From Omnitrophica bacterium GWA2_41_15 (lineage in GTDB: Bacteria > Omnitrophota > Gorgyraeia > Ghiorseimicrobiales > Ghiorseimicrobiaceae), in NCBI GenBank assembly GCA_919902105.1, contig CAKKQO010000023.1, forward strand, positions 2,128-66,127: a stretch of DNA of 64,000 nt. Direction: 5' to 3'. The translations under genes were made by a program, and so were the position numbers. The notes below the pieces were generated by a model that was not told the origin of the DNA, made no database searches, and saw only the letters and a list, made by a program, of their open reading frames with translations. How positions within the stretch are numbered: position 1 is the stretch's first letter; every line of letters starts with the position of its first letter. Positions 2,637 through 55,919 of this stretch are shown here, piece by piece.

Positions 2637-2640
<4 letters not shown>
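874..2640 (+). CDS. Secreted fusion protein: degenerate 5'-nucleotidase/metallophosphatase-like N-domain plus thioredoxin/DsbA-like C-terminal domains
   Basis: Signal-like N-terminus (FLFIGVLSFLFFSQRVFA). The N-half resembles the UshA/calcineurin-like fold, but the first metal motif reads GETHS..PCEC. The C-half carries a CxxC (SCITC) in a thioredoxin-like context. The gene starts 5 nt after the CcdA-like gene. Confidence 0.45.
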
Positions 2641-5148
<2,508 letters not shown>

Positions 5149-8319: not shown

Positions 8320-9473
8320 TGCAGCCAAGCGTAAAACAGGTAATTATATTGGGTTCTACCGGTTCCATCGGAGAACATACTCTAGATGTGATTTCTCGCA
8401 ATAAAGAAAAATTTAGAGTATTGGGTTTATCCGCGCATTCTAATAGCGAATTGCTCTTAAAACAGATTGATAAATTTTCTCCTGAATATGCGGCGCTCGG
8501 CGATATAGATAAAGCAAAAGCAATAGAAAATAGGATTAAAGGCAGGACTAAAATTTTAAAGGGCGAAGACGCCATAGAAAATTTACTTGATAAAAAAAGC
8601 GATTTAGTAGTAGTGGCAATAAGCGGCGGCCGCGCTCTCTTACCCGTGTTAAAAGCCTTAGAGACGGCTAAAGCAATTGCTTTAGCAAATAAGGAAGCTT
8701 TGGTAATGGCCGGGCACTTGATAATGAAGAAGGCAGAAGAAAAAAAAGTTAAAATAATCCCTGTGGACAGCGAGCAGAGCGCGATATTCCAGTGCCTTAA
8801 AGATGAAAATACGCATGCAATAAAAAAAGTTTATTTAACTGCTTCCGGCGGGCCGTTAAAAAACATAAGCAGGAAAAATTTTTTTAAAGTTACTCCGGAT
8901 AAAGCCCTTAATCATCCACGCTGGAAGATGGGTAGAAAAATCTCCATTGATTCGGCAACATTGATGAATAAAGGCCTGGAATTAATCGAAGCAATGTGGT
9001 TATTCGCTCTTAAGTCAGAGGCAATAGAAATAATTATACACCCCGAGGCAATAATCCATTCTATGGTAGAATTTATCGACGGCGTAGTTTTAGCACAATT
9101 GGCAGTTGCCGATATGCGTATCCCTATTCAATACGCTCTAACGTATCCGGAGCGCATAAGTTCGGGTTTTAAAAGTTTAAATTTTTCCGCAATTAAAAAA
9201 TTGACTTTTGAAAAGCCCGATTTTAAAAAATTTCCCTGCTTGCGTTTAGCTAAAGAGGCCTCTCTTTCCGGCGGGAGTGCTCCCTGTGTATTAAATGCCG
9301 TCAATGAAGAGGCAGTGAATGCCTTTTTAGACAGGCGCATAAGTTTTATCGCTATCCCGAAAGTAATTGAAAAAGTTTTAAGCAGGCATAGAGTTGTAAA
9401 GTGTCCGGATTTAGAACAAATTTTAAAAACCGATGCCTGGGCAAGAAATGAGGTTAAATGTTTAATTTCTTAG
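8319..9473 (+). CDS. dxr: 1-deoxy-D-xylulose 5-phosphate reductoisomerase
   Basis: ILGSTGSIG NADPH motif, LANKEALV, NHPRWKMG, IHPEAIIHSMVEF. Confidence 0.95.
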   Translation: MQPSVKQVIILGSTGSIGEHTLDVISRNKEKFRVLGLSAHSNSELLLKQIDKFSPEYAALGDIDKAKAIENRIKGRTKILKGEDAIENLLDKKSDLVVVAISGGRALLPVLKALETAKAIALANKEALVMAGHLIMKKAEEKKVKIIPVDSEQSAIFQCLKDENTHAIKKVYLTASGGPLKNISRKNFFKVTPDKALNHPRWKMGRKISIDSATLMNKGLELIEAMWLFALKSEAIEIIIHPEAIIHSMVEFIDGVVLAQLAVADMRIPIQYALTYPERISSGFKSLNFSAIKKLTFEKPDFKKFPCLRLAKEASLSGGSAPCVLNAVNEEAVNAFLDRRISFIAIPKVIEKVLSRHRVVKCPDLEQILKTDAWARNEVKCLIS

Positions 9474-10601: not shown

Positions 10602-11717
10602 ATGAATATTGTTCGTCGTAAAACAAAAGAAATAAAAATAGGAAAAGTAAAAATAGGAGGCAATAACCCCATTGCTATACAGTCAATGGTAAAGGTTGAC
10701 ACGAAGGATATCGCCGCAGTTATCCGGCAGATAAAAAGTTTAGAAAAAGCGGGCTGTGAAATAGCGAGGGTTGCCGTTAAAGATAAAAATTCGGCCAAGG
10801 CAATAAGTAAGATTAGGCCTAAAATAAATATTCCTTTAGTTGCCGATATCCACTTTGATTATAACTTAGCGCTTTTGGCTGTAAAAAACGGGGTGGATAA
10901 GATAAGGTTAAATCCGGGAAATATTTTTAAGCCTAAAGAGGTGCGCGCGGTAACACTAGCGGCGAAAAGAGCTAAAATTCCCATCCGCGTGGGGGTAAAT
11001 TCTGGTTCGGTCAGAGGGGAATCCAGCGTGGACAACATGGTTAAAAATGCGCAGGATTACATAAAAATGCTGGAAGAATTTGATTTTCATAATATCATAG
11101 TTTCGCTGAAAGCATCAAATATTTTGGATACAGTTGATGCGTATCGTAAAATCTCTAAACTTTGTAATTATCCTTTACATTTAGGCGTGACTGCGACTGG
11201 TACCTCGTATTCGGGGGCAATAAAATCTAGCATTGCTTTAGGGGCGCTTTTATTAGAAGGCATAGGCGATACCATCAGGATATCGCTTACGGAAAAGCCG
11301 GAAGATGAGGTGAACACAGCAAAGATTATTTTAGGCGCCTTAGGGTTACGCCGTTTTGGGCCGGAGATTATCAGCTGTCCAACCTGCGGCAGGTGCGAAG
11401 TGGATTTGGTCAATATAGTTAAGAAACTAGAAAATTCGTTGGCCAGTTGGCCAGTTGGCCAGTTGGCCAGTATAACCGGCAAGCCGGCGGGGCACCCGCG
11501 AGAGCGGGTCGGGCAAGCCGGCAAACCACTAAAGGTGGCCGTAATGGGCTGTGTAGTCAACGGCCCGGGAGAAACCAAAGAAGCGGATATAGGCATTGCC
11601 TTTGGCAGAAAAGAAGGATTGTTATTTAGGCATGGTAAACCCATAAGAAAAGTTCCTGCAGATAGGTGCGTGGAAGTGTTATTAGAGGAAATGAATAAAG
11701 TTTACAATAAACTGTAA
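10602..11717 (+). CDS. ispG: 4-hydroxy-3-methylbut-2-enyl diphosphate synthase (carries a repeat-encoded insertion)
   Basis: [29 protein letters not shown] and GCVVNGPGE motifs. Start moved to ATG 10602 because the TTG at 10578 lies inside the upstream hairpin. Confidence 0.93.
   Translation: [371 protein letters not shown]
11439..11526 (+). repeat. Intragenic GC-rich repeat/palindrome block inside ispG
   Basis: TTGGCCAG x4 tandem (11439-11470) followed by CCGGCAAGCCGGCGGGGCACCCGC-GAGA-GCGGGTCGGGCAAGCCGGC. The ispG frame stays open through the block. Confidence 0.85.
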
Positions 11718-11728
11718 ACTTCCGAGCG

Positions 11729-11748
11729 CCTGCCTGCCAGCAGGCAGG
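11729..11748. repeat. CCTGCCTGCC..GGCAGGCAGG palindrome, copy 1
   Basis: CCTGCCTG-CCAG-CAGGCAGG, 11 nt after the ispG stop. Related copies at 20350-20369 and 43606-43626. Confidence 0.8.
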
Positions 11749-20201: not shown

Positions 20202-20243
20202 AATTACCAGTTACGAGTTACGAATTACTGATTACAATTATGA
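20202..20243. repeat. Degenerate heptamer tandem repeat, 6 units
   Basis: AATTACC AGTTACG AGTTACG AATTACT GATTACA ATTATGA. Confidence 0.75.
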
Positions 20244-21125: not shown

Positions 21126-22288
21126 AAAAATTTAATAATTATAAGTTACGAGTTATAAGTTTAATTATTTTTTTGTTTTTAACTTATCACTTATCACTTA
21201 TCACTTATAATTATTCCTATGCCCAGCCGCAGAAAAGCCGCAATGTGCGCGTGCTCATTCTTAAAGGGGCAGAAAAATTTGACCTCTACATCAGAGGAAA
21301 ATATGAAATACGGTCACCGGACGGGAAAAATGTTATTAAAGAGGGTAAAGGTATAAATGCGAAGGTTTATGCTGATAATAACGCGATAAATATTTCCGAT
21401 ATTCGTATAAATGAAAATAAAATTATAATCTCTCCAGAGTCAGGGATTTTTTATCTCAATAATCGCCCCTTACGCGGCGGGCTAATTGTAAAAAAAGAAA
21501 ATGACTTAACTTTATTAGTAATCAATTATTTAGATTTAGAAGATTATGTTAAAGGGGTTCTTTTCCATGAAGTTTCGCATCACTGGCCGATTGAGGCGAT
21601 TAAGGCGCAGGCAATAGCCACGCGCACGTATGTGCTTTATCAGGTAGAGGTGAGTAAAGATAAAGACTACGATGTAACCAGCGATATTTATTCGCAAGTA
21701 TATGGCGGCAAAGACGCGGAAAGATACCGTACCATTAAGGCGGCAGAGGAAACTGAAGGCGTGGTCTTAACTTGTAAAGCTAAAGTTTTTCCGGCTTATT
21801 TTCATGCTACCTGCGGCGGGAAAACCGAAGATGCAAGCGAATTATGGCAGACAGACCTGCCTGCCTTAAAAGGCGTTGATTGCGGTTTCTGTTTTAAGTC
21901 ACCGCATTTTAAATGGCAGAAGGTATTTAGCAAAGATGAGCTTATAAAAAGGTTAAATTCTTCAGGGTATCGCTTTACTTCTTTAGAGGGCATCCAAATA
22001 TTAGGCCGCGACAAATCAGGCAGAATCAGAAAACTAAAGTTAAAGTCAAAAGATGGTGACGTGTTTATTCCTGCGAAAGATTTCCGCCAGCTCGTAGGCA
22101 CAAGAGTTATCCGTTCTACTAACTTTGCTGTAAATAAATCCGCAGATAATATCTATTTTGAGGGCTTTGGCTGGGGCCATGGCGTGGGGATGTGCCAGTG
22201 GGGGGCATATTTTATGAGCATTAAAAAATATAAGTATCAGGATATCCTTAAGTTTTATTACCCCGGAGCAGAAATAGAGAAAATATGA
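21110..22288 (+). CDS. SpoIID/LytB-domain protein (peptidoglycan remodelling)
   Basis: Motifs LEDYVKGVL..E, AIKAQAIATRTY, CGG.TED, and C-terminal GHGVGMCQWGA. The N-terminal hydrophobic segment is encoded by repeat DNA, so the start is uncertain (TTG 21104 or ATG 21110). Confidence 0.85.
   Translation: MVPSIKKFNNYKLRVISLIIFLFLTYHLSLITYNYSYAQPQKSRNVRVLILKGAEKFDLYIRGKYEIRSPDGKNVIKEGKGINAKVYADNNAINISDIRINENKIIISPESGIFYLNNRPLRGGLIVKKENDLTLLVINYLDLEDYVKGVLFHEVSHHWPIEAIKAQAIATRTYVLYQVEVSKDKDYDVTSDIYSQVYGGKDAERYRTIKAAEETEGVVLTCKAKVFPAYFHATCGGKTEDASELWQTDLPALKGVDCGFCFKSPHFKWQKVFSKDELIKRLNSSGYRFTSLEGIQILGRDKSGRIRKLKLKSKDGDVFIPAKDFRQLVGTRVIRSTNFAVNKSADNIYFEGFGWGHGVGMCQWGAYFMSIKKYKYQDILKFYYPGAEIEKI
21134..21215. 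repeat. Inverted-repeat plus heptamer-tandem block at the 5' end of the SpoIID-like gene
   Basis: AATAATTATAAGT (21134-21146) pairs with ACTTATAATTATT (21203-21215). ACTTATC x3 tandem at 21182-21202. AAGTTAC GAGTTAT AAGTTTA heptamers. Confidence 0.75.
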
Positions 22289-23681: not shown

Positions 23682-25850
<2,169 letters not shown>

Positions 25851-26185: not shown

Positions 26186-26911
26186 ATGCCTAATTTACTT
26201 TATGAAAGGCAGATGCTTCGGCAGGGTTTTAGTTTTGTCGGTGGTGTAGATGAGGCAGGCCGCGGCCCTTTAGCAGGGCCGGTAGTGGCTGCCGCGGTAA
26301 TTTTAAAAAAGACAAAGTTTAAAAATAGAATTGATGATTCGAAAATACTTTCTCCTTTAGCCCGAAAGAGGGCCTATTGCGAGATAGTAGAGAATTCTTT
26401 TTTCGGGATAGGCGTTATTTCCGAAGTAATTATTGACGCAGAAAATATCTTAAAGGCGACTATCCTTGCTATGGAAAATGCCATAACCTCTTGTGTTGAT
26501 AAAATTAAAAAAAATTCTAATGTTTGTTTTTTGATAGACGGAAGAAACATAACGCTTGATATTCCCTGTAAGTTTAGGTGTATCGTTGACGGAGACGCAA
26601 AGTGCATGTCAATTTCAGCCGCCTCTATCGTTGCAAAGGTAACACGCGATCGGATTATGCAGATCTACGATAAGATTTACCCCGCATATGGTTTTAAGCA
26701 GCATAAAGGGTATGGAACGCGCGAGCATATTCTGAATTTAAAAAAAGCAGGGGCATCAGCGATACATAGAAAAACATTTTGTCCGGTCAAGCAAAATCTG
26801 CCAACTGGCGATTTCCGCCAAAGGCGGATCCGCCAAAGGCGGAAGATTTTGTGCGATGCCGCACATGCTTGTGCGGCGCAAGTAAATGTGCAATGCATAA
26901 TATTGCTTTAG
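26186..26911 (+). CDS. rnhB: Ribonuclease HII with a repeat-encoded C-terminal extension
   Basis: [25 protein letters not shown] motifs. The last roughly 30 codons (after ..FCPVKQNL) are read through hairpin repeats. Confidence 0.9.
26814..26880. repeat. Tandem 15-mer mini-hairpins plus a second hairpin at the rnhB/yraN junction
   Basis: TCCGCCAAAGGCGGA x2 (26814-26843), each itself a hairpin. Then GTGCGATGCCGCAC-ATGCTT-GTGCGGCGCA (26851-26880). Confidence 0.85.
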
Positions 26912-27258
26912 GTAAGGTTGGCGAAGACGAAGCAGCCAATTTTTTAAAGAAAAAAGGTTATAAAGTTTTGGAACGGAATTGGCGCTTGCCGAAATTCGGC
27001 GAGATAGATATAATAGCGAAAGATAAAGGCATAATCTGCTTCATTGAGGTAAAGAGACGAACGAGCAGTTTGTTCGGCTATCCTTATGAGGCGGTGGATA
27101 AAAAGAAACAATTTAAGTTATCAAGCCTCGCCCTTTCTTACCTAAAGTCAAGAAATTTAATGCAACATCGCGCGAGATTCGATATAATATCTATTTTTAA
27201 TGACGAAATCAGCCTATTCGCCAACGCCTTTAGCTTAAGCGAAAAATTTTTATATTAG
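26893..27258 (+). CDS. yraN: YraN-family (UPF0102) endonuclease-like protein
   Basis: G...E..A..FL...G...L..N.R....GEIDIIA......FIEVK.R pattern. Start set at ATG 26893 rather than 26779, because the extension is repeat-encoded. Confidence 0.8.
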   Translation: MHNIALGKVGEDEAANFLKKKGYKVLERNWRLPKFGEIDIIAKDKGIICFIEVKRRTSSLFGYPYEAVDKKKQFKLSSLALSYLKSRNLMQHRARFDIISIFNDEISLFANAFSLSEKFLY

Positions 27259-42049: not shown

Positions 42050-43111
42050 ATGCTTGAAAAACTGGTTGCAATCGAAAAACGCTATAAGGAGTTAGAAGAG
42101 CTTTTAGTAAAAGAGGAAACCCTCGCCGATAAAGATAAATATCAGGTTTATGCCAAGGAGCTTTCTAAATTATCTAAGATTGTTGAAAGGATAAAGCTGT
42201 TCGATAATAAAAACGCGGAACTAAAAGATTTAGAGCATCTTCTTTCTGAACAGCATGAGGAGAGTTTCTTGGATTTAGCTAAAACTGAGATAGATAAACT
42301 AAGAGGGGAAATATCAGCCTTAACCTCAGAGCTTGAGTCTTTGCTCTCGCAAGAAACGGCAGATAAACAGGAAGAGCTTATTATGGAAATTCGCGCCGGA
42401 ACCGGAGGGCAAGAGGCAAGCCTTTTCGTCGGCGACCTATACCGGATGTATACGAAATATGCCGACGCACGAGGTTTTAAATATGAGGTGATGGCGAGCC
42501 ACCCTACCGATACAGGGGGATTTAAAGAAGTAATCTTTAGTATTTCCGGGAAAGGCGCTTATAAAAATTTAAAATATGAAAGCGGTGTGCATCGCGTTCA
42601 GCGTGTACCGGCTACTGAAAGCTCCGGCAGAATTCATACTTCGACGGTGACTGTCGCTGTATTGGTTGAGCCGCAAGAAGTAGATTTAGTTGTCAATCCG
42701 CAGGATTTAAAAATTGATGTTTACCGCTCTAAAGGCGCAGGTGGGCAAAGCGTAAATACGACGGATTCCGCAGTCCGGATTACTCATCTGCCTACGGGAA
42801 TGGTAGTAACTTGTCAGGACGAACGCTCCCAACTAAAGAATAAAAATAAAGCAATGCGGGTTTTAAGGGCACGGCTTTTAGATAAGACAAAACAGGAAGA
42901 CTTAAATAAAATGACTTCTGAGCGCAGGCTTCAGGTCGGTACAGGCGATAGAGCCGAGAAGATACGTACGTATAATTTTCCTGATCGGCGTATCACCGAC
43001 CACAGGATTAATCTCACCATATACAGGCTTGAAGATGTTTTAGACGGCAATATCAACGAATTTATTGGGCGCTTACAGGAAAATGAGAAGAAGAAAAAGG
43101 CGGCGGTATGA
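42050..43111 (+). CDS. prfA: Peptide chain release factor 1
   Basis: GGQ motif (GAGGQSVNTT), PAT tripeptide region (RVPATES), RASGAGGQ-like context; 353 aa. Confidence 0.95.
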   Translation: MLEKLVAIEKRYKELEELLVKEETLADKDKYQVYAKELSKLSKIVERIKLFDNKNAELKDLEHLLSEQHEESFLDLAKTEIDKLRGEISALTSELESLLSQETADKQEELIMEIRAGTGGQEASLFVGDLYRMYTKYADARGFKYEVMASHPTDTGGFKEVIFSISGKGAYKNLKYESGVHRVQRVPATESSGRIHTSTVTVAVLVEPQEVDLVVNPQDLKIDVYRSKGAGGQSVNTTDSAVRITHLPTGMVVTCQDERSQLKNKNKAMRVLRARLLDKTKQEDLNKMTSERRLQVGTGDRAEKIRTYNFPDRRITDHRINLTIYRLEDVLDGNINEFIGRLQENEKKKKAAV

Positions 43112-43956
43112 CGGAAAAAGAGTTAATTTTAACTAATCTTTTGGAATGTTCCCGGCATGAATTATATTTTAAGAATAAACCGTTAAGCAAGGAGCAAGAG
43201 AGAGAGCTGTCAAAAATACTTAAGTTGCGCTGCGCTGGAGTGCCTCTACAATATATCTTAGGCTTTAGCGAATTTATGGGGATAAAATTTAAAGTAGATA
43301 AGCGTGCACTTATCCCGCGGCCGGAGACAGAGATACTGGTTGAGACGGCGATAAAATATGTATCAAGTATCCCCGCCTGTGGCGGGACAGGCAAGTATCA
43401 AGTATCAAGTAAGAACATTCTAGATATAGGGACGGGGTCGGGTTGTATTGCCGTGAGTTTGGCGAAATTTCTGCCTAATTCAAAAATAACCGCTGTGGAT
43501 ATTTCCCAAAAAGCTTTAGAAATAGCGCGGGAAAATGCTGGATTAAATGGCATTGCTGATCAGATTGAGTTTATGCAGAGTGATTTATTCTCGAAATTCG
43601 AAATTCCTGCCTTGCCGGTAGGCAGGCGAATTTCGAATTTCGATATTATTGTTTCCAATCCCCCCTATATTTGCAGTGATGAGATTAAAAAGCTGCCCAA
43701 AGAGGTACAATATGAGCCAAAGCTCGCATTAGATGGTGGATGTGACGGGCTAAACTATTATCGCCGTCTTATTAAGGAGAGCCCGTCTTTTTTAGGAGAA
43801 GGCGGTTTATTAATTATGGAATTAGGAATTGGCCAACTTGAACAAGTAAAAAATATAAGCGAACAAAGTAAAAGATTTATATTTATTGAGGCAATTAAGG
43901 ATTATAATAAAATAAATAGGGTGATAGTATTAAGGCGGGATAGAGAGAATGGATAA
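43108..43956 (+). CDS. prmC: Release-factor glutamine N5-methyltransferase (carries two repeat-encoded insertions)
   Basis: IPRPETE, LDIGTGSGCIA, IVSNPPYI motifs. Follows prfA. Confidence 0.9.
   Translation: MTEKELILTNLLECSRHELYFKNKPLSKEQERELSKILKLRCAGVPLQYILGFSEFMGIKFKVDKRALIPRPETEILVETAIKYVSSIPACGGTGKYQVSSKNILDIGTGSGCIAVSLAKFLPNSKITAVDISQKALEIARENAGLNGIADQIEFMQSDLFSKFEIPALPVGRRISNFDIIVSNPPYICSDEIKKLPKEVQYEPKLALDGGCDGLNYYRRLIKESPSFLGEGGLLIMELGIGQLEQVKNISEQSKRFIFIEAIKDYNKINRVIVLRRDRENG
43360..43411 (+). repeat. Intragenic hairpin flanked by direct heptamer repeats inside prmC (site 1)
   Basis: GTATCAAGTATC | CCCGCC-TGT-GGCGGG | ACAGGCAA | GTATCAAGTATCAAGTA. Confidence 0.85.
43591..43643 (+). 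repeat. Intragenic 53-nt near-perfect palindrome inside prmC (site 2)
   Basis: TCGAAATTCGAAATTCCTGCC-TTGCCGGTA-GGCAGGCGAATTTCGAATTTCGA. Its core is copy 3 of the CCTGCC..GGCAGG motif. Confidence 0.9.
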
Positions 43957-53916: not shown

Positions 53917-54261
53917 ATGGTTATAGACATATTAGATAAAGCAAAGCTGGCAGTAAAACTTGCAGAGGATAAAAAGTGCGAAAATCCTATTATTTTGCAT
54001 ATAAGTAAAGTATCCAATCTCTGCGATTACTTTGTAATTCTTAGCGCTGAGTCCTCCAGGCGAGTAGAGACAATTGCCGAGGCAATAAAAGATGGTTTTG
54101 AAAAAAAGAGTATTAAAATTTTGCATTACGAAGGCAAAGATACCTGTCTTTGGGTATTATTAGATACTGGCGATGTAATTGTGCATGTTTTTCGTTCGGA
54201 TATGAGGGAGTTTTATGCCTTAGAAAGGCTTTGGTCTAGCGCAGAAGTAATTAAGTTATGA
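53917..54261 (+). CDS. rsfS: Ribosome silencing factor RsfS (iojap family)
   Basis: DYFVI..G.S.R....A pattern, VVHVF-like segment, YALE.LW end. Confidence 0.85.
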   Translation: MVIDILDKAKLAVKLAEDKKCENPIILHISKVSNLCDYFVILSAESSRRVETIAEAIKDGFEKKSIKILHYEGKDTCLWVLLDTGDVIVHVFRSDMREFYALERLWSSAEVIKL

Positions 54262-55919
54262 TAAAGACTGAGTTAGAAGAAGAAATTAGCGCCTTAATAG
54301 AAAATTCTGTAAGCCAAATTGCTCAAGGTGAGGGAAGTAGTAAGCTGGCCTTGAGTTCTCTTGAAGTGAGCGATGAGTCAACCCATGGCGACCTCTCCTC
54401 AAATGCGGCCTTGCAATTAAGCAAGAGTATTAAAAAAAATCCCCGCCTTATCGCCGATTCCCTCATGCAAATTCTGAATAAAGAAATTGCGGATTCTTCT
54501 CTTAAAGATGTAATTGGGAAAATCGAAATTGCCGGAGCCGGTTTTATCAATTTTTTTATTAAAGACGAATACTTTTACCAAAAGATAGATGAAATTATAA
54601 AATTGGACAGTAATTTCGGAAGAATTGATATCGGCAGAAAAGAAAAGGCGCAAATTGAATTTGTCAGCGCAAATCCCACCGGGCCTTTAAGCATTGCCCA
54701 TGCCCGGCAAGCCGCGGTAGGGGATAGCCTCGCCAGGATAATGGAATTTTTAGGTTTTAGTGTAACACGCGAATATTATCTTAATGATGAGGGTAATCAG
54801 GTTAATATTCTAGGTGAATCCATCAAACTGCGGCTTAAAGAATTACAAGGCGAAAAGATAGATTTCCCCGAAGATTATTATCAGGGAGACTATATTAAGG
54901 AAATAGCGGCAAAAATTTCCGCCAATGGCGGAAAAAATCATAATTTCAATTTTTCCGAGTACGGAATAAAGTACATTTTAGACGGGATTAAGAAAGATTT
55001 GGCGGATTTTAACGTTGAGTTTGACGCCTGGTCATCGCAGGCGGCTTTAACAAAAAGCGGAAAGATTGAAGAAGCAATAGAATTTTTAAGGAAAAAAGGC
55101 TTTATCTATGAGCGTGATGATGCGGTTTGGTTTAAATCGACGCTATTCGGAGATGATAAGGACCGCGTGGTAATAAAGAGCGATAAAAGCTACACTTATC
55201 TGGCACCCGATATCGCTTATCATAAAGATAAATTTGCGCAGGGATTTAAACGGGTAATTAATTTATGGGGGCCGGACCATCACGGTTATATCCCGCGTAT
55301 CCGCGCGGCTGTTTCTGCGTTAGGGCAGGAGAAAGATACTCTTTCTGTAGTAATTGTGCAGTTAGTTACATTATTGCGCGAAGGTAAAGTTGTGCCGATG
55401 TCTACCAGAAAGGCAAGCTATGTAACCCTGCGTCAGATTATTGACGAAGTAGGCAAAGATGCGGCGCGTTTTTTTCTCGTGGGAAGGCGTGTTTCCAGCC
55501 ACTTAGATTTTGATTTAGAGTTGGCTAAAAAAGAATCTCAGGAGAATCCAGTGTATTATATCCAGTATGCCTTTGCGCGGATTTCCAGTATCCTGCATAA
55601 AGAAAAAGAGGAAGGTTTTGTACAAGGCAATGCCGATTTAGGGCTGCTTAAAGAAGCGGAAGAATTATTGCTTACGCGCAAGCTAAGCCAATTCCCGCGC
55701 TCTTTAAGCCTATGTTTAGACATGCTTGATCCTTATCCGCTTACGCAGTATCTGACAGAGTTAGCCGCAGATTTTCATAGATTTTACGACAAACATAAGG
55801 TTTTAGATGCAGCGCGCGCTAATTTAAGCCAGGCGCGCCTAAAGTTGGTTAATGCTGTTAAAATCGTGCTAAGAAATGGCCTTTCGCTTTTAGGTTTATC
55901 TACACCGGAGAAGATGTAA
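54258..55919 (+). CDS. argS: Arginyl-tRNA synthetase
   Basis: FVSANPTGPL.IAH (HIGH region), an MSTRK variant of KMSKS, and a C-terminal DALR anticodon-binding domain. Confidence 0.95.
   Translation: MIKTELEEEISALIENSVSQIAQGEGSSKLALSSLEVSDESTHGDLSSNAALQLSKSIKKNPRLIADSLMQILNKEIADSSLKDVIGKIEIAGAGFINFFIKDEYFYQKIDEIIKLDSNFGRIDIGRKEKAQIEFVSANPTGPLSIAHARQAAVGDSLARIMEFLGFSVTREYYLNDEGNQVNILGESIKLRLKELQGEKIDFPEDYYQGDYIKEIAAKISANGGKNHNFNFSEYGIKYILDGIKKDLADFNVEFDAWSSQAALTKSGKIEEAIEFLRKKGFIYERDDAVWFKSTLFGDDKDRVVIKSDKSYTYLAPDIAYHKDKFAQGFKRVINLWGPDHHGYIPRIRAAVSALGQEKDTLSVVIVQLVTLLREGKVVPMSTRKASYVTLRQIIDEVGKDAARFFLVGRRVSSHLDFDLELAKKESQENPVYYIQYAFARISSILHKEKEEGFVQGNADLGLLKEAEELLLTRKLSQFPRSLSLCLDMLDPYPLTQYLTELAADFHRFYDKHKVLDAARANLSQARLKLVNAVKIVLRNGLSLLGLSTPEKM

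Follow-up and report, generated by a model that had tools for sequence, protein, structure and literature searches.

A 30-nt double hairpin inserted into the stop codon of rnhB in an Omnitrophica bacterium, and a candidate family of very small mobile DNA elements

The mitochondrial double-hairpin elements (DHEs) of Allomyces and Schizosaccharomyces octosporus, together with the hairpin repeats of sponge mitochondrial DNA (mtDNA), are short, G+C-rich sequences that consist of two adjacent hairpins. The DHEs are dispersed and thought to be mobile, have no coding capacity, occur between genes, in rRNA genes and occasionally in protein genes, and are kept in transcripts (PMC10085805, PMC2800124). 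The Rickettsia palindromic elements (RPEs) are palindromic repeats that sit in frame in unrelated protein genes and add a peptide to functional proteins (PMC10969869). Here, we describe a 30-nt double hairpin that has split the stop codon of rnhB, the gene for RNase HII, in Omnitrophica bacterium GWA2_41_15, a member of the Omnitrophota, and a family of similar sequences that was reached through it in metagenomes. The locus lies in a 64,000-nt stretch of contig CAKKQO010000023.1 (positions 2,128 to 66,127), referred to as the window; positions are counted from its first base, and all features of the locus are on the forward (+) strand.

Several other groups of small palindromic sequences are relevant for comparison. 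IS200/IS605 elements, which are at least 100 nt long, have hairpin ends and require guide and cleavage sequences beyond those hairpins; they insert, without target duplication, 3' of a short preferred motif of 4-5 nt. Among the yeast mitochondrial GC clusters, some classes have been reported with target duplications. These clusters are mobile, G+C-rich palindromes in A+T-rich DNA that are found in frame in var1 and are kept in RNA (as cited in PMC2800124). The repetitive extragenic palindromes (REPs) are G+C-rich palindromes of 20-40 bp, often paired and in some cases intragenic; a tyrosine (HUH) transposase, the REP-associated tyrosine transposase (RAYT), is believed to mobilise them in trans. 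In most of them, an unpaired GTAG or CGTC tag is present, and the location is mainly extragenic, downstream of genes (PMC3733652).

The list of open reading frames (ORFs) for the window includes an rnhB frame of 241 amino acids (aa) at 26186-26911. Near its end, the sequence reads, in order, CTGGCGATT, TCCGCCAAAGGCGGA, TCCGCCAAAGGCGGA and AGATTTTGTGCGATGCCGCACATGCTTGTGCGGCGCAAG. The two perfect tandem copies of TCCGCCAAAGGCGGA, at 26814-26828 and 26829-26843, each have the form TCCGCC-AAA-GGCGGA; Tandem Repeats Finder (TRF) reported a period of 15, 2.0 copies and a 100% match. By chance, 0.16 matches to this 15-mer with two or fewer mismatches would be expected in the window. An RNA fold of 41 nt across the insert had a free energy of -19.4 kcal/mol (z = -3.96). 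The initial annotation had followed the rnhB frame through two tandem 15-mers and a further hairpin to a TAG at 26909, and all of these were confirmed from the sequence, the ORF list and the TRF output.

The closest relative in the databases is represented by four independent assemblies (L014-L017) with rnhB DNA ≈95% identical to that of the window. Its 209-aa product (P0001) ends ...KQNLPTGD, followed by TAG. Where these contigs read GATTAGATTTTG, the window has GATT, the 30 bp and AGATTTTG, with hardly any differences elsewhere in the junction. The gap can be placed in one way only, between the T and the AG of the relative's TAG (GAT T^AG), and no base is duplicated. The flanking TT and AG are already there in the empty allele, which reads GATT^AGAT in L014. 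In the window, the T of the old stop (26813) has become the first base of the codon TTC (F210), as seen in alignments with L014-L016 and L022/L023, and the AG (26844-26845) now lies within the codon AAG (K220). The more distant L022/L023, whose rnhB is 68% identical, have the same stop and the same 47-nt spacer, so the stop after PTGD is ancestral and the 30 bp at 26814-26843 are derived. Thus, the stop codon was split by an insertion whose position, lack of target duplication and derived state can all be read from the alignment. Of the two readings offered in the initial annotation, this bears out the one in which repeats inserted at the gene boundary and displaced the stop: relatives differ by exactly 30 bp within the TAG.

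The 207-, 209- and 241-aa alleles of RNase HII fall together in one 90% protein cluster. We found the 241-aa allele in ENA assembly ERZ1292641 (Hainich H51), in the Logan runs ERR3858132, ERR3858115 and SRR32696703, and in an NCBI metagenome-assembled genome (MAG; MEK6714757.1), with an identical protein on at least seven contigs from four samples in addition to the NCBI entry; both 15-mers were present on all contigs that encode it. Relatives that lack the repeat and have a homologous tail were looked for, as the initial annotation had advised, and were not found: those without the repeat encode RNase HII of 207 or 209 aa.

Other interpretations of the 15-mer and its fold were also considered. 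The only other near-match in the window, TCCGCCAATGGCGGA at 54918-54932 in argS (ORF 54258-55919), has one mismatch, can form an 8-bp hairpin and lies in a variable loop of ArgRS; it was rejected as a second copy, as the relatives are equal in length and have a homologous ISA(N/I)GG segment. A bulge-helix-bulge intron was rejected upon inspection of the nested fold, in which the two unpaired stretches, of 3 nt each, lie opposite one another in a 3x3 internal loop instead of being staggered across a 4-bp helix. Rfam gave no match in the window at the gathering score, and near the site only naRNA4, with 20 bits against 59.5.

A metagenome scan with the 21-mer TCCGCCAAAGGCGGATCCGCC gave matches on at least 120 contigs from ≈60 or more datasets, as judged by contig name prefix. 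We define the family by two adjacent 15-nt units with arms TCCGCC/GGCGGA and 3-nt loops; the counts given for it refer to the matches listed. In all of these, the motif runs on into a second unit, the canonical form being TCCGCC-AAA-GGCGGA-TCCGCC-TCN-GGCGGA. There are 112 two-unit arrays and none with three or more units. Loop 2 is mostly TCC, TCG, TCT or TCA; in nine copies it is TTT, which makes the element a perfect 30-nt palindrome with GGATCC at its centre. The flanks are mutually unrelated, and the G+C content of the contigs ranges from 31 to 68%. A target can be recognised at the immediate borders, with T at -2 (84%), T (58%) or C (28%) at -1, A (71%) or G (16%) at +1 and A at +2 (89%), giving T(T/C)^(A/G)A, to which the TT^AG of the window conforms. 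Since TT and AG are already present in the empty rnhB allele, these bases belong to the preferred target and not to the element. The window copy has the two units, the arms, the target and the filled/empty comparison of the family and shares 27 of its 30 bases; it departs from it in the loop pair, which is AAA with TCN (or TTT) elsewhere.

A second filled/empty pair was found on contig L067, which has a canonical copy where the window reads GGATTT^AAAGAT. One of its proteins shares 72% identity with the product of window ORF 2637-3878, so the family is present in an apparent relative of the window organism. The orthologous genes on L070 (6086-6115) and L092 (1575-1604) carry copies at the same site in opposite orientation (AAA/TCG and AGA/TTT). 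Between these two, none of the 24 stem bases and three of the six loop bases have changed, and the substitutions in the flanks are scattered, with a mean column identity of 93%; the arrangement suggests either inversion in situ or re-insertion.

The copies lie mostly within genes. Of the 112, 94 (84%) are in open frames of at least 100 codons: 56 in sense frame 0, where they encode SAKGGSASGG, 17 in antisense frame 0, encoding SA(K/R/G)GGSAFGG, and 21 in the other four frames. Five of the six element frames contain no stop, and the sixth has one only if loop 2 is TCA. The host ORFs are diverse, with 82 of them matching 147 Pfam families, none with more than three members. Host proteins include ClpC, DNA polymerase I (PolA), uS3, AlaRS, RecG, UvrC, GyrA, TrmD and MiaA. 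In a ClpC-like ATPase, PolA and uS3, the ten residues align as an insertion that is absent at the matching position in the solved structures of ClpC, Taq polymerase and uS3. Of the insertions in 63 unambiguous host ORFs, 54 fall exactly between codons, compared to 39.5 expected from the target motif (p = 7e-4). The excess is real but moderate, and would fit selection on the encoded peptide in addition to the choice of target.

The phase of the target also bears on the rnhB site. In the phase in which the split follows the first base of a codon, a T^AA or T^AG target amounts to a stop codon. This accounts for the near absence of that phase inside genes, and it also makes stop codons natural places for the element to land, though seldom used ones. 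We read the window copy as one of these rare stop-codon cases of the family, and L138 and L048 may be further ones.

Some individual copies and host contigs had features of their own. Contig L125 (1-7692), which carries genes of the gas-vesicle type, an Hsp20-like gene and one for a CDC48-like ATPase, has five full copies and one half copy, all in frame 0. Disrupted second units are found on L030 (6258-6330), with a nested hairpin insert of ≈38 nt in the loop, on L094 (1563-1600), with a larger loop, and on L060 (2197-2217), with a truncation. Short A+T-rich tandem-repeat arrays with units of 6-9 nt surround 14 of 110 copies, on contigs that include L033, L045, L051, L073, L089, L096, L099, L109 and L117; these arrays are found around 9 of 38 copies that are not in frame 0 and 5 of 72 that are. 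On L047 (3266-3312, 3372-3448), 17 nt that duplicate the 5' end of tRNA-Val (GGGCCCGTAGCTCAGTT) immediately precede a copy, with the intact tRNA-Val ≈100 nt downstream, which looks like an integration scar. In a ribosomal-protein operon on L117 (9200-9245 and 10080-10125), the intergenic repeat CTCGCTTTGCTCGG(A/G)AATTAAAAA(A)TTCA-TCCGCCTCAGGCGGA-TT occurs twice, each time with a single hairpin unit. We considered these paired single units (at 9229 and 10112) as a possible autonomous parent element and rejected it, since they flank ribosomal-protein genes and are part of the longer intergenic repeat. No correlation of the third base of loop 2 with the flanking bases or with contig G+C was apparent in contingency tables, for which no test statistic was calculated. 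Spread by phages was rejected, the pattern being present in only 2 of 2.9 million viral contigs. A protein database search with a synthetic peptide of the SAKGGSASGG type gave one weak match only, and in 10 exact look-ups of host-protein clusters, the length variants were alternative start calls only.

A fixed sequence in unrelated contexts, a defined target, presence and absence in close relatives and a change of orientation at one site together point to a mobile element. In form, the closest analogue is the DHE, which, compared by description only, resembles the two-hairpin fold of the window insert. However, DHEs are confined to organelle genomes, are variable in sequence and are mostly intergenic, whereas the 30-nt family is found on bacterial chromosomal contigs, has a fixed sequence and is largely contained within long ORFs. 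In behaviour, the RPEs are closest, through their in-frame insertion; they differ in length (≈150 bp, range 100-150 bp, with a correspondingly longer peptide) and in being limited to Rickettsia, whereas the family described here measures 30 nt (10 aa) and is spread over contigs of 31-68% G+C from dozens of metagenomes. Unlike REPs, the copies are mostly intragenic, and GTAG and CGTC are each found within 8 nt of only 1 of 111 copies among the matches listed. The family resembles the palindrome-associated transposable elements (PATEs) derived from IS200/IS605 in having a hairpin at each end, no transposase of its own and no target duplication, but the element stops at the base of its hairpins, and its preferred flanks are symmetric (TT^AA-like), not one-sided. 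[quoted passage not shown] We have therefore filed the 30-nt family in none of the DHE, RPE, REP, MITE and IS200/IS605 groups. Searches by DNA string, peptide and keyword in open-access papers and bioRxiv found no published description of it.

We tentatively suggest that the 30-nt double hairpin is a previously undescribed, very small mobile DNA element, spread over many uncultivated lineages, that inserts at TT^AA-like sites without duplication and colonises coding sequence; we rate this possibility almost, but not quite, as highly as its opposite. The family would be a very small, non-autonomous palindromic element, inserted, now or formerly, in trans by some enzyme. In frame 0 of either strand, such an element would remodel housekeeping proteins by way of a flexible loop, and would at times abolish a stop codon and thereby create a new C-terminus. 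We are considerably more confident of the narrower statement that 26814-26843 is a derived insertion of the family's double hairpin into the rnhB TAG, which we regard as likely. At this locus, the double hairpin (TCCGCC-NNN-GGCGGA) x2 would have landed between T and AG without target duplication, and read-through of ten element codons and the 47-nt spacer would have produced a 32-residue tail that overlaps yraN by 19 nt. As a conjecture, the AAA/AAA variant might have arisen from the palindromic AAA/TTT form by a single loop flip.

Several points weigh against this interpretation. No mobilising gene, donor or autonomous copy was found, in genome fragments only and with no systematic search for transposases, and most of the host contigs lack a taxonomic placement. 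The codon-phase bias is partly due to the target motif itself, which falls between codons 63% of the time in the same 63 host ORFs. Translation and tolerance of the rnhB tail are inferred. Furthermore, the loop pair AAA/AAA of the window is found in none of the other 111 two-unit copies among the matches listed, and 221 kb of sequence, made up of the window and related rnhB loci, contain no copy besides the one in rnhB.

The last two of these points also speak for the main alternative, in which the repeat would be of local origin and separate from the metagenome family: the quasi-palindrome GCCAACTGGC, which lies just upstream, would have been the site of slippage or template switching through which a 15-mer was inserted and tandemly duplicated. 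A fresh tandem duplication would leave two identical units, as seen here, and by eye, the upstream flank GCCAACTGGCGA loosely resembles GCCAAAGGCGGA. However, the insert agrees with the family in 27 of 30 bases, in having exactly two units, in its TT^AG target and in its lack of duplication, and the family is found at no fewer than 120 unrelated loci. A canonical copy is also present on the contig with the protein 72% identical to that of the window, and it is very unlikely that the same 12-nt arms would have arisen independently twice. We consequently view a local origin as improbable, and an insertion of the family element as the better account of the 30 bp.

The consequences of the insertion for the protein can be followed residue by residue. 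RNase HII itself corresponds to codons 1-209 (26186-26812) and has the C-terminus ...KQNLPTGD of the closest relatives, whose proteins P0001 and P0245 have D209 as their last residue. The product matches PF01351 over residues 20-200 with 105.9 bits (cut-off 25.8) and the NCBIfam RNase HII model NF000595 (PRK00015) with 215 bits (cut-off 167). The invariant columns D22, E23, D118 and D137 of a 45-sequence alignment are retained. The homology to RNase HII stops near residue 205, and the NCBIfam models end at or before this residue. Since the 30-nt insert preserves the frame and contains no in-frame stop, translation would continue through the insert and then the spacer to the new TAG at 26909-26911. 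The tail beyond the ancestral end at D209 has 32 residues and overlaps yraN by 19 nt (26893-26911). The initial annotation had described a tail of about 30 residues, encoded by repeats and overlapping yraN; the length and the overlap hold, but the repeat accounts for only ten codons, F210-R219, and part of K220, reading (F)RQRRIRQRR(K), and the other 22 codons come from the old intergenic spacer. No homologue of the tail was found among the best 120 RNase HII homologues, which have 185-230 aa, with none longer than 230 aa. In an AlphaFold2 model, the predicted local distance difference test (pLDDT) score was >90 across most of residues 1-200 and <50 at residues 208-214 and 216-241. The poorly modeled tail fits a recent appendage that is predicted to be unstructured or at least unsupported.

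The insert landed in a junction that already had a history. The old intergenic spacer between rnhB and yraN (26846-26892) is the 47 nt that separate the rnhB stop from the yraN ATG in L014 and L022. It contains an older hairpin at 26849-26881, with the core GCCGCACA-TGCT-TGTGCGGC at 26858-26877, extended by TTGT/GCAA; both GTGCGATGCCGCAC (26851-26864) and GTGCGGCGCA (26871-26880) are present and pair with the core GCCGCACA/TGTGCGGC. This is the second hairpin that had been taken as part of the repeat tail, an assignment that does not stand, as the hairpin belongs to the 47-nt spacer and is present in relatives without the 30-bp insert. All 209-type relatives have it, with one compensatory change from C-G to A-T in L022; no further copy of it was found in the window or in the fetched loci.

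Most of this spacer belongs in turn to an older indel of 61 nt, here called element A. In the window, it spans 26788-26878, where the 30-nt insert has split it into 26788-26813 and 26844-26878; in the relatives, it corresponds to L014 1193-1253 and L022 10603-10663. From this segment come the C-terminal KQNLPTGD, the TAG stop and the larger part of the spacer with its hairpin. It is absent from the 207-aa alleles (L024, L025, L001), in which rnhB ends ...PVSLMCNA with an 8-nt overlap at the yraN ATG; where the segment is present, it has replaced this ancestral end and the overlap. Between L014 and L022, the segment is 93% identical, against 68% for rnhB and 77% for yraN; the rnhB genes of L014 (segment present) and L024 (segment absent) are 98.3% identical. 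A search of the window and the fetched loci gave no further copy, and the segment may be a mobile site-specific insert or reflect recombination or repeated loss. The two genes thus overlap by 8 nt in the 207-aa allele, are separated by 47 nt in the 209-aa allele and overlap by 19 nt in the 241-aa allele. Judging from the compared alleles, the junction would have been remodeled twice by hairpin-bearing inserts, with the overlap disappearing in the 209 state and returning in the 241 state.

We considered the possibility that the insertion was kept because it is useful, by restoring an overlap and translational coupling between rnhB and yraN, by adding an Arg-rich tail that binds nucleic acid, or by acting as a terminator or attenuator. 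The changing overlaps of the three alleles are compatible with such a role for coupling, and the 241-aa allele persists in at least four samples. The first 11 residues of the tail include six Arg and one Lys. However, the low pLDDT of the tail speaks against usefulness, and within host ORFs of the family, the RQRRIR... frame is rare among the matches listed. As for a terminator or attenuator, which had been raised in the initial annotation, a simple scan did flag unit 2 together with AGATTTTG as terminator-like, but two such sites were found against 2.0 expected by chance. The candidate has just four T after a 3-nt gap, and it now lies inside a frame predicted to be translated. Moreover, the family copies are mostly in ORFs, many of them essential, and have 3' flanks that are A-rich, not T-rich, in the listed matches, a pattern at odds with efficient termination. 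Overall, there is no support for a terminator, and we consider it improbable that the insertion was kept for its usefulness in any of these forms. It is hardly credible that the extended frame is an assembly or sequencing artefact, or rnhB a decaying pseudogene, even though palindromic repeats can cause misassembly and the tail has no homologue, because the identical product was recovered from different runs and assemblers (ENA, three Logan runs and the NCBI MAG), the frame is intact, the invariant positions are retained and the core is confidently modeled.

The read-through also affects the gene calls for the neighbouring gene. The yraN product (UPF0102) has 121 aa, with its true start at ATG 26893 (26893-27258), as indicated by PF02021, the NCBIfam YraN model and 121-aa gene calls in L014, L015, L021, L022 and L025. 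The initial annotation had noted an over-long yraN call from 26779 that overlaps the repeats. This 159-aa ORF, from TTG 26779, is present mechanically, and it matches PF02021 with 96.9 bits, but the YraN homology begins only at about residue 37-45, and the 121-aa yraN of the relatives matches ATG 26893. The insertion and the read-through have thus perturbed the automatic prediction of the yraN start. Public yraN calls on contigs identical to the window conflict with each other, some giving 135 aa from GTG 26851, within the spacer hairpin, and one giving 121 aa from ATG 26893; the calls in question are at L018 10666-11073 and L021 1948-2313.

The window contains other short repeats. The prmC/hemK ORF (43108-43956) has G+C-rich hairpins at 43372-43386 (CCCGCC-TGT-GGCGGG) and 43608-43628 (CCTGCC..GGCAGG), which lie beside short A+T-rich tandem repeats (regions 43340-43420 and 43590-43650) and correspond to insertions of 11 aa and 7 aa relative to Thermotoga (T.) maritima HemK. 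Similar CCTGCC/GGCAGG hairpins are found at 11733 and 20350. Perfect or near-perfect tandem arrays with units of 7-8 nt are located at 21135-21208, 24522-24587, 11438-11471, 20204-20228 and 25375-25404. One pair of arrays is inverted, with four copies of ATAAGTT facing four of ACTTATC, and GTTGGCCA is repeated 4.2 times.

At the level of the locus, the end of a gene has been rewritten: the stop codon was split, the spacer was made coding and an overlap was re-created, with the alleles from before and after the event coexisting in neighbouring groundwater wells. By itself, this is a modest curiosity, and the main reason for interest is the family to which the insert led. Should this family be mobile as well as undescribed, we would know of few elements of its kind that are as small, and it would be a bacterial counterpart of the DHEs and RPEs. 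It would then also recurrently give rise to 10-residue loop insertions in proteins and, in MAGs, to faulty gene calls, for example ORFs that are too long or starts that are misplaced.

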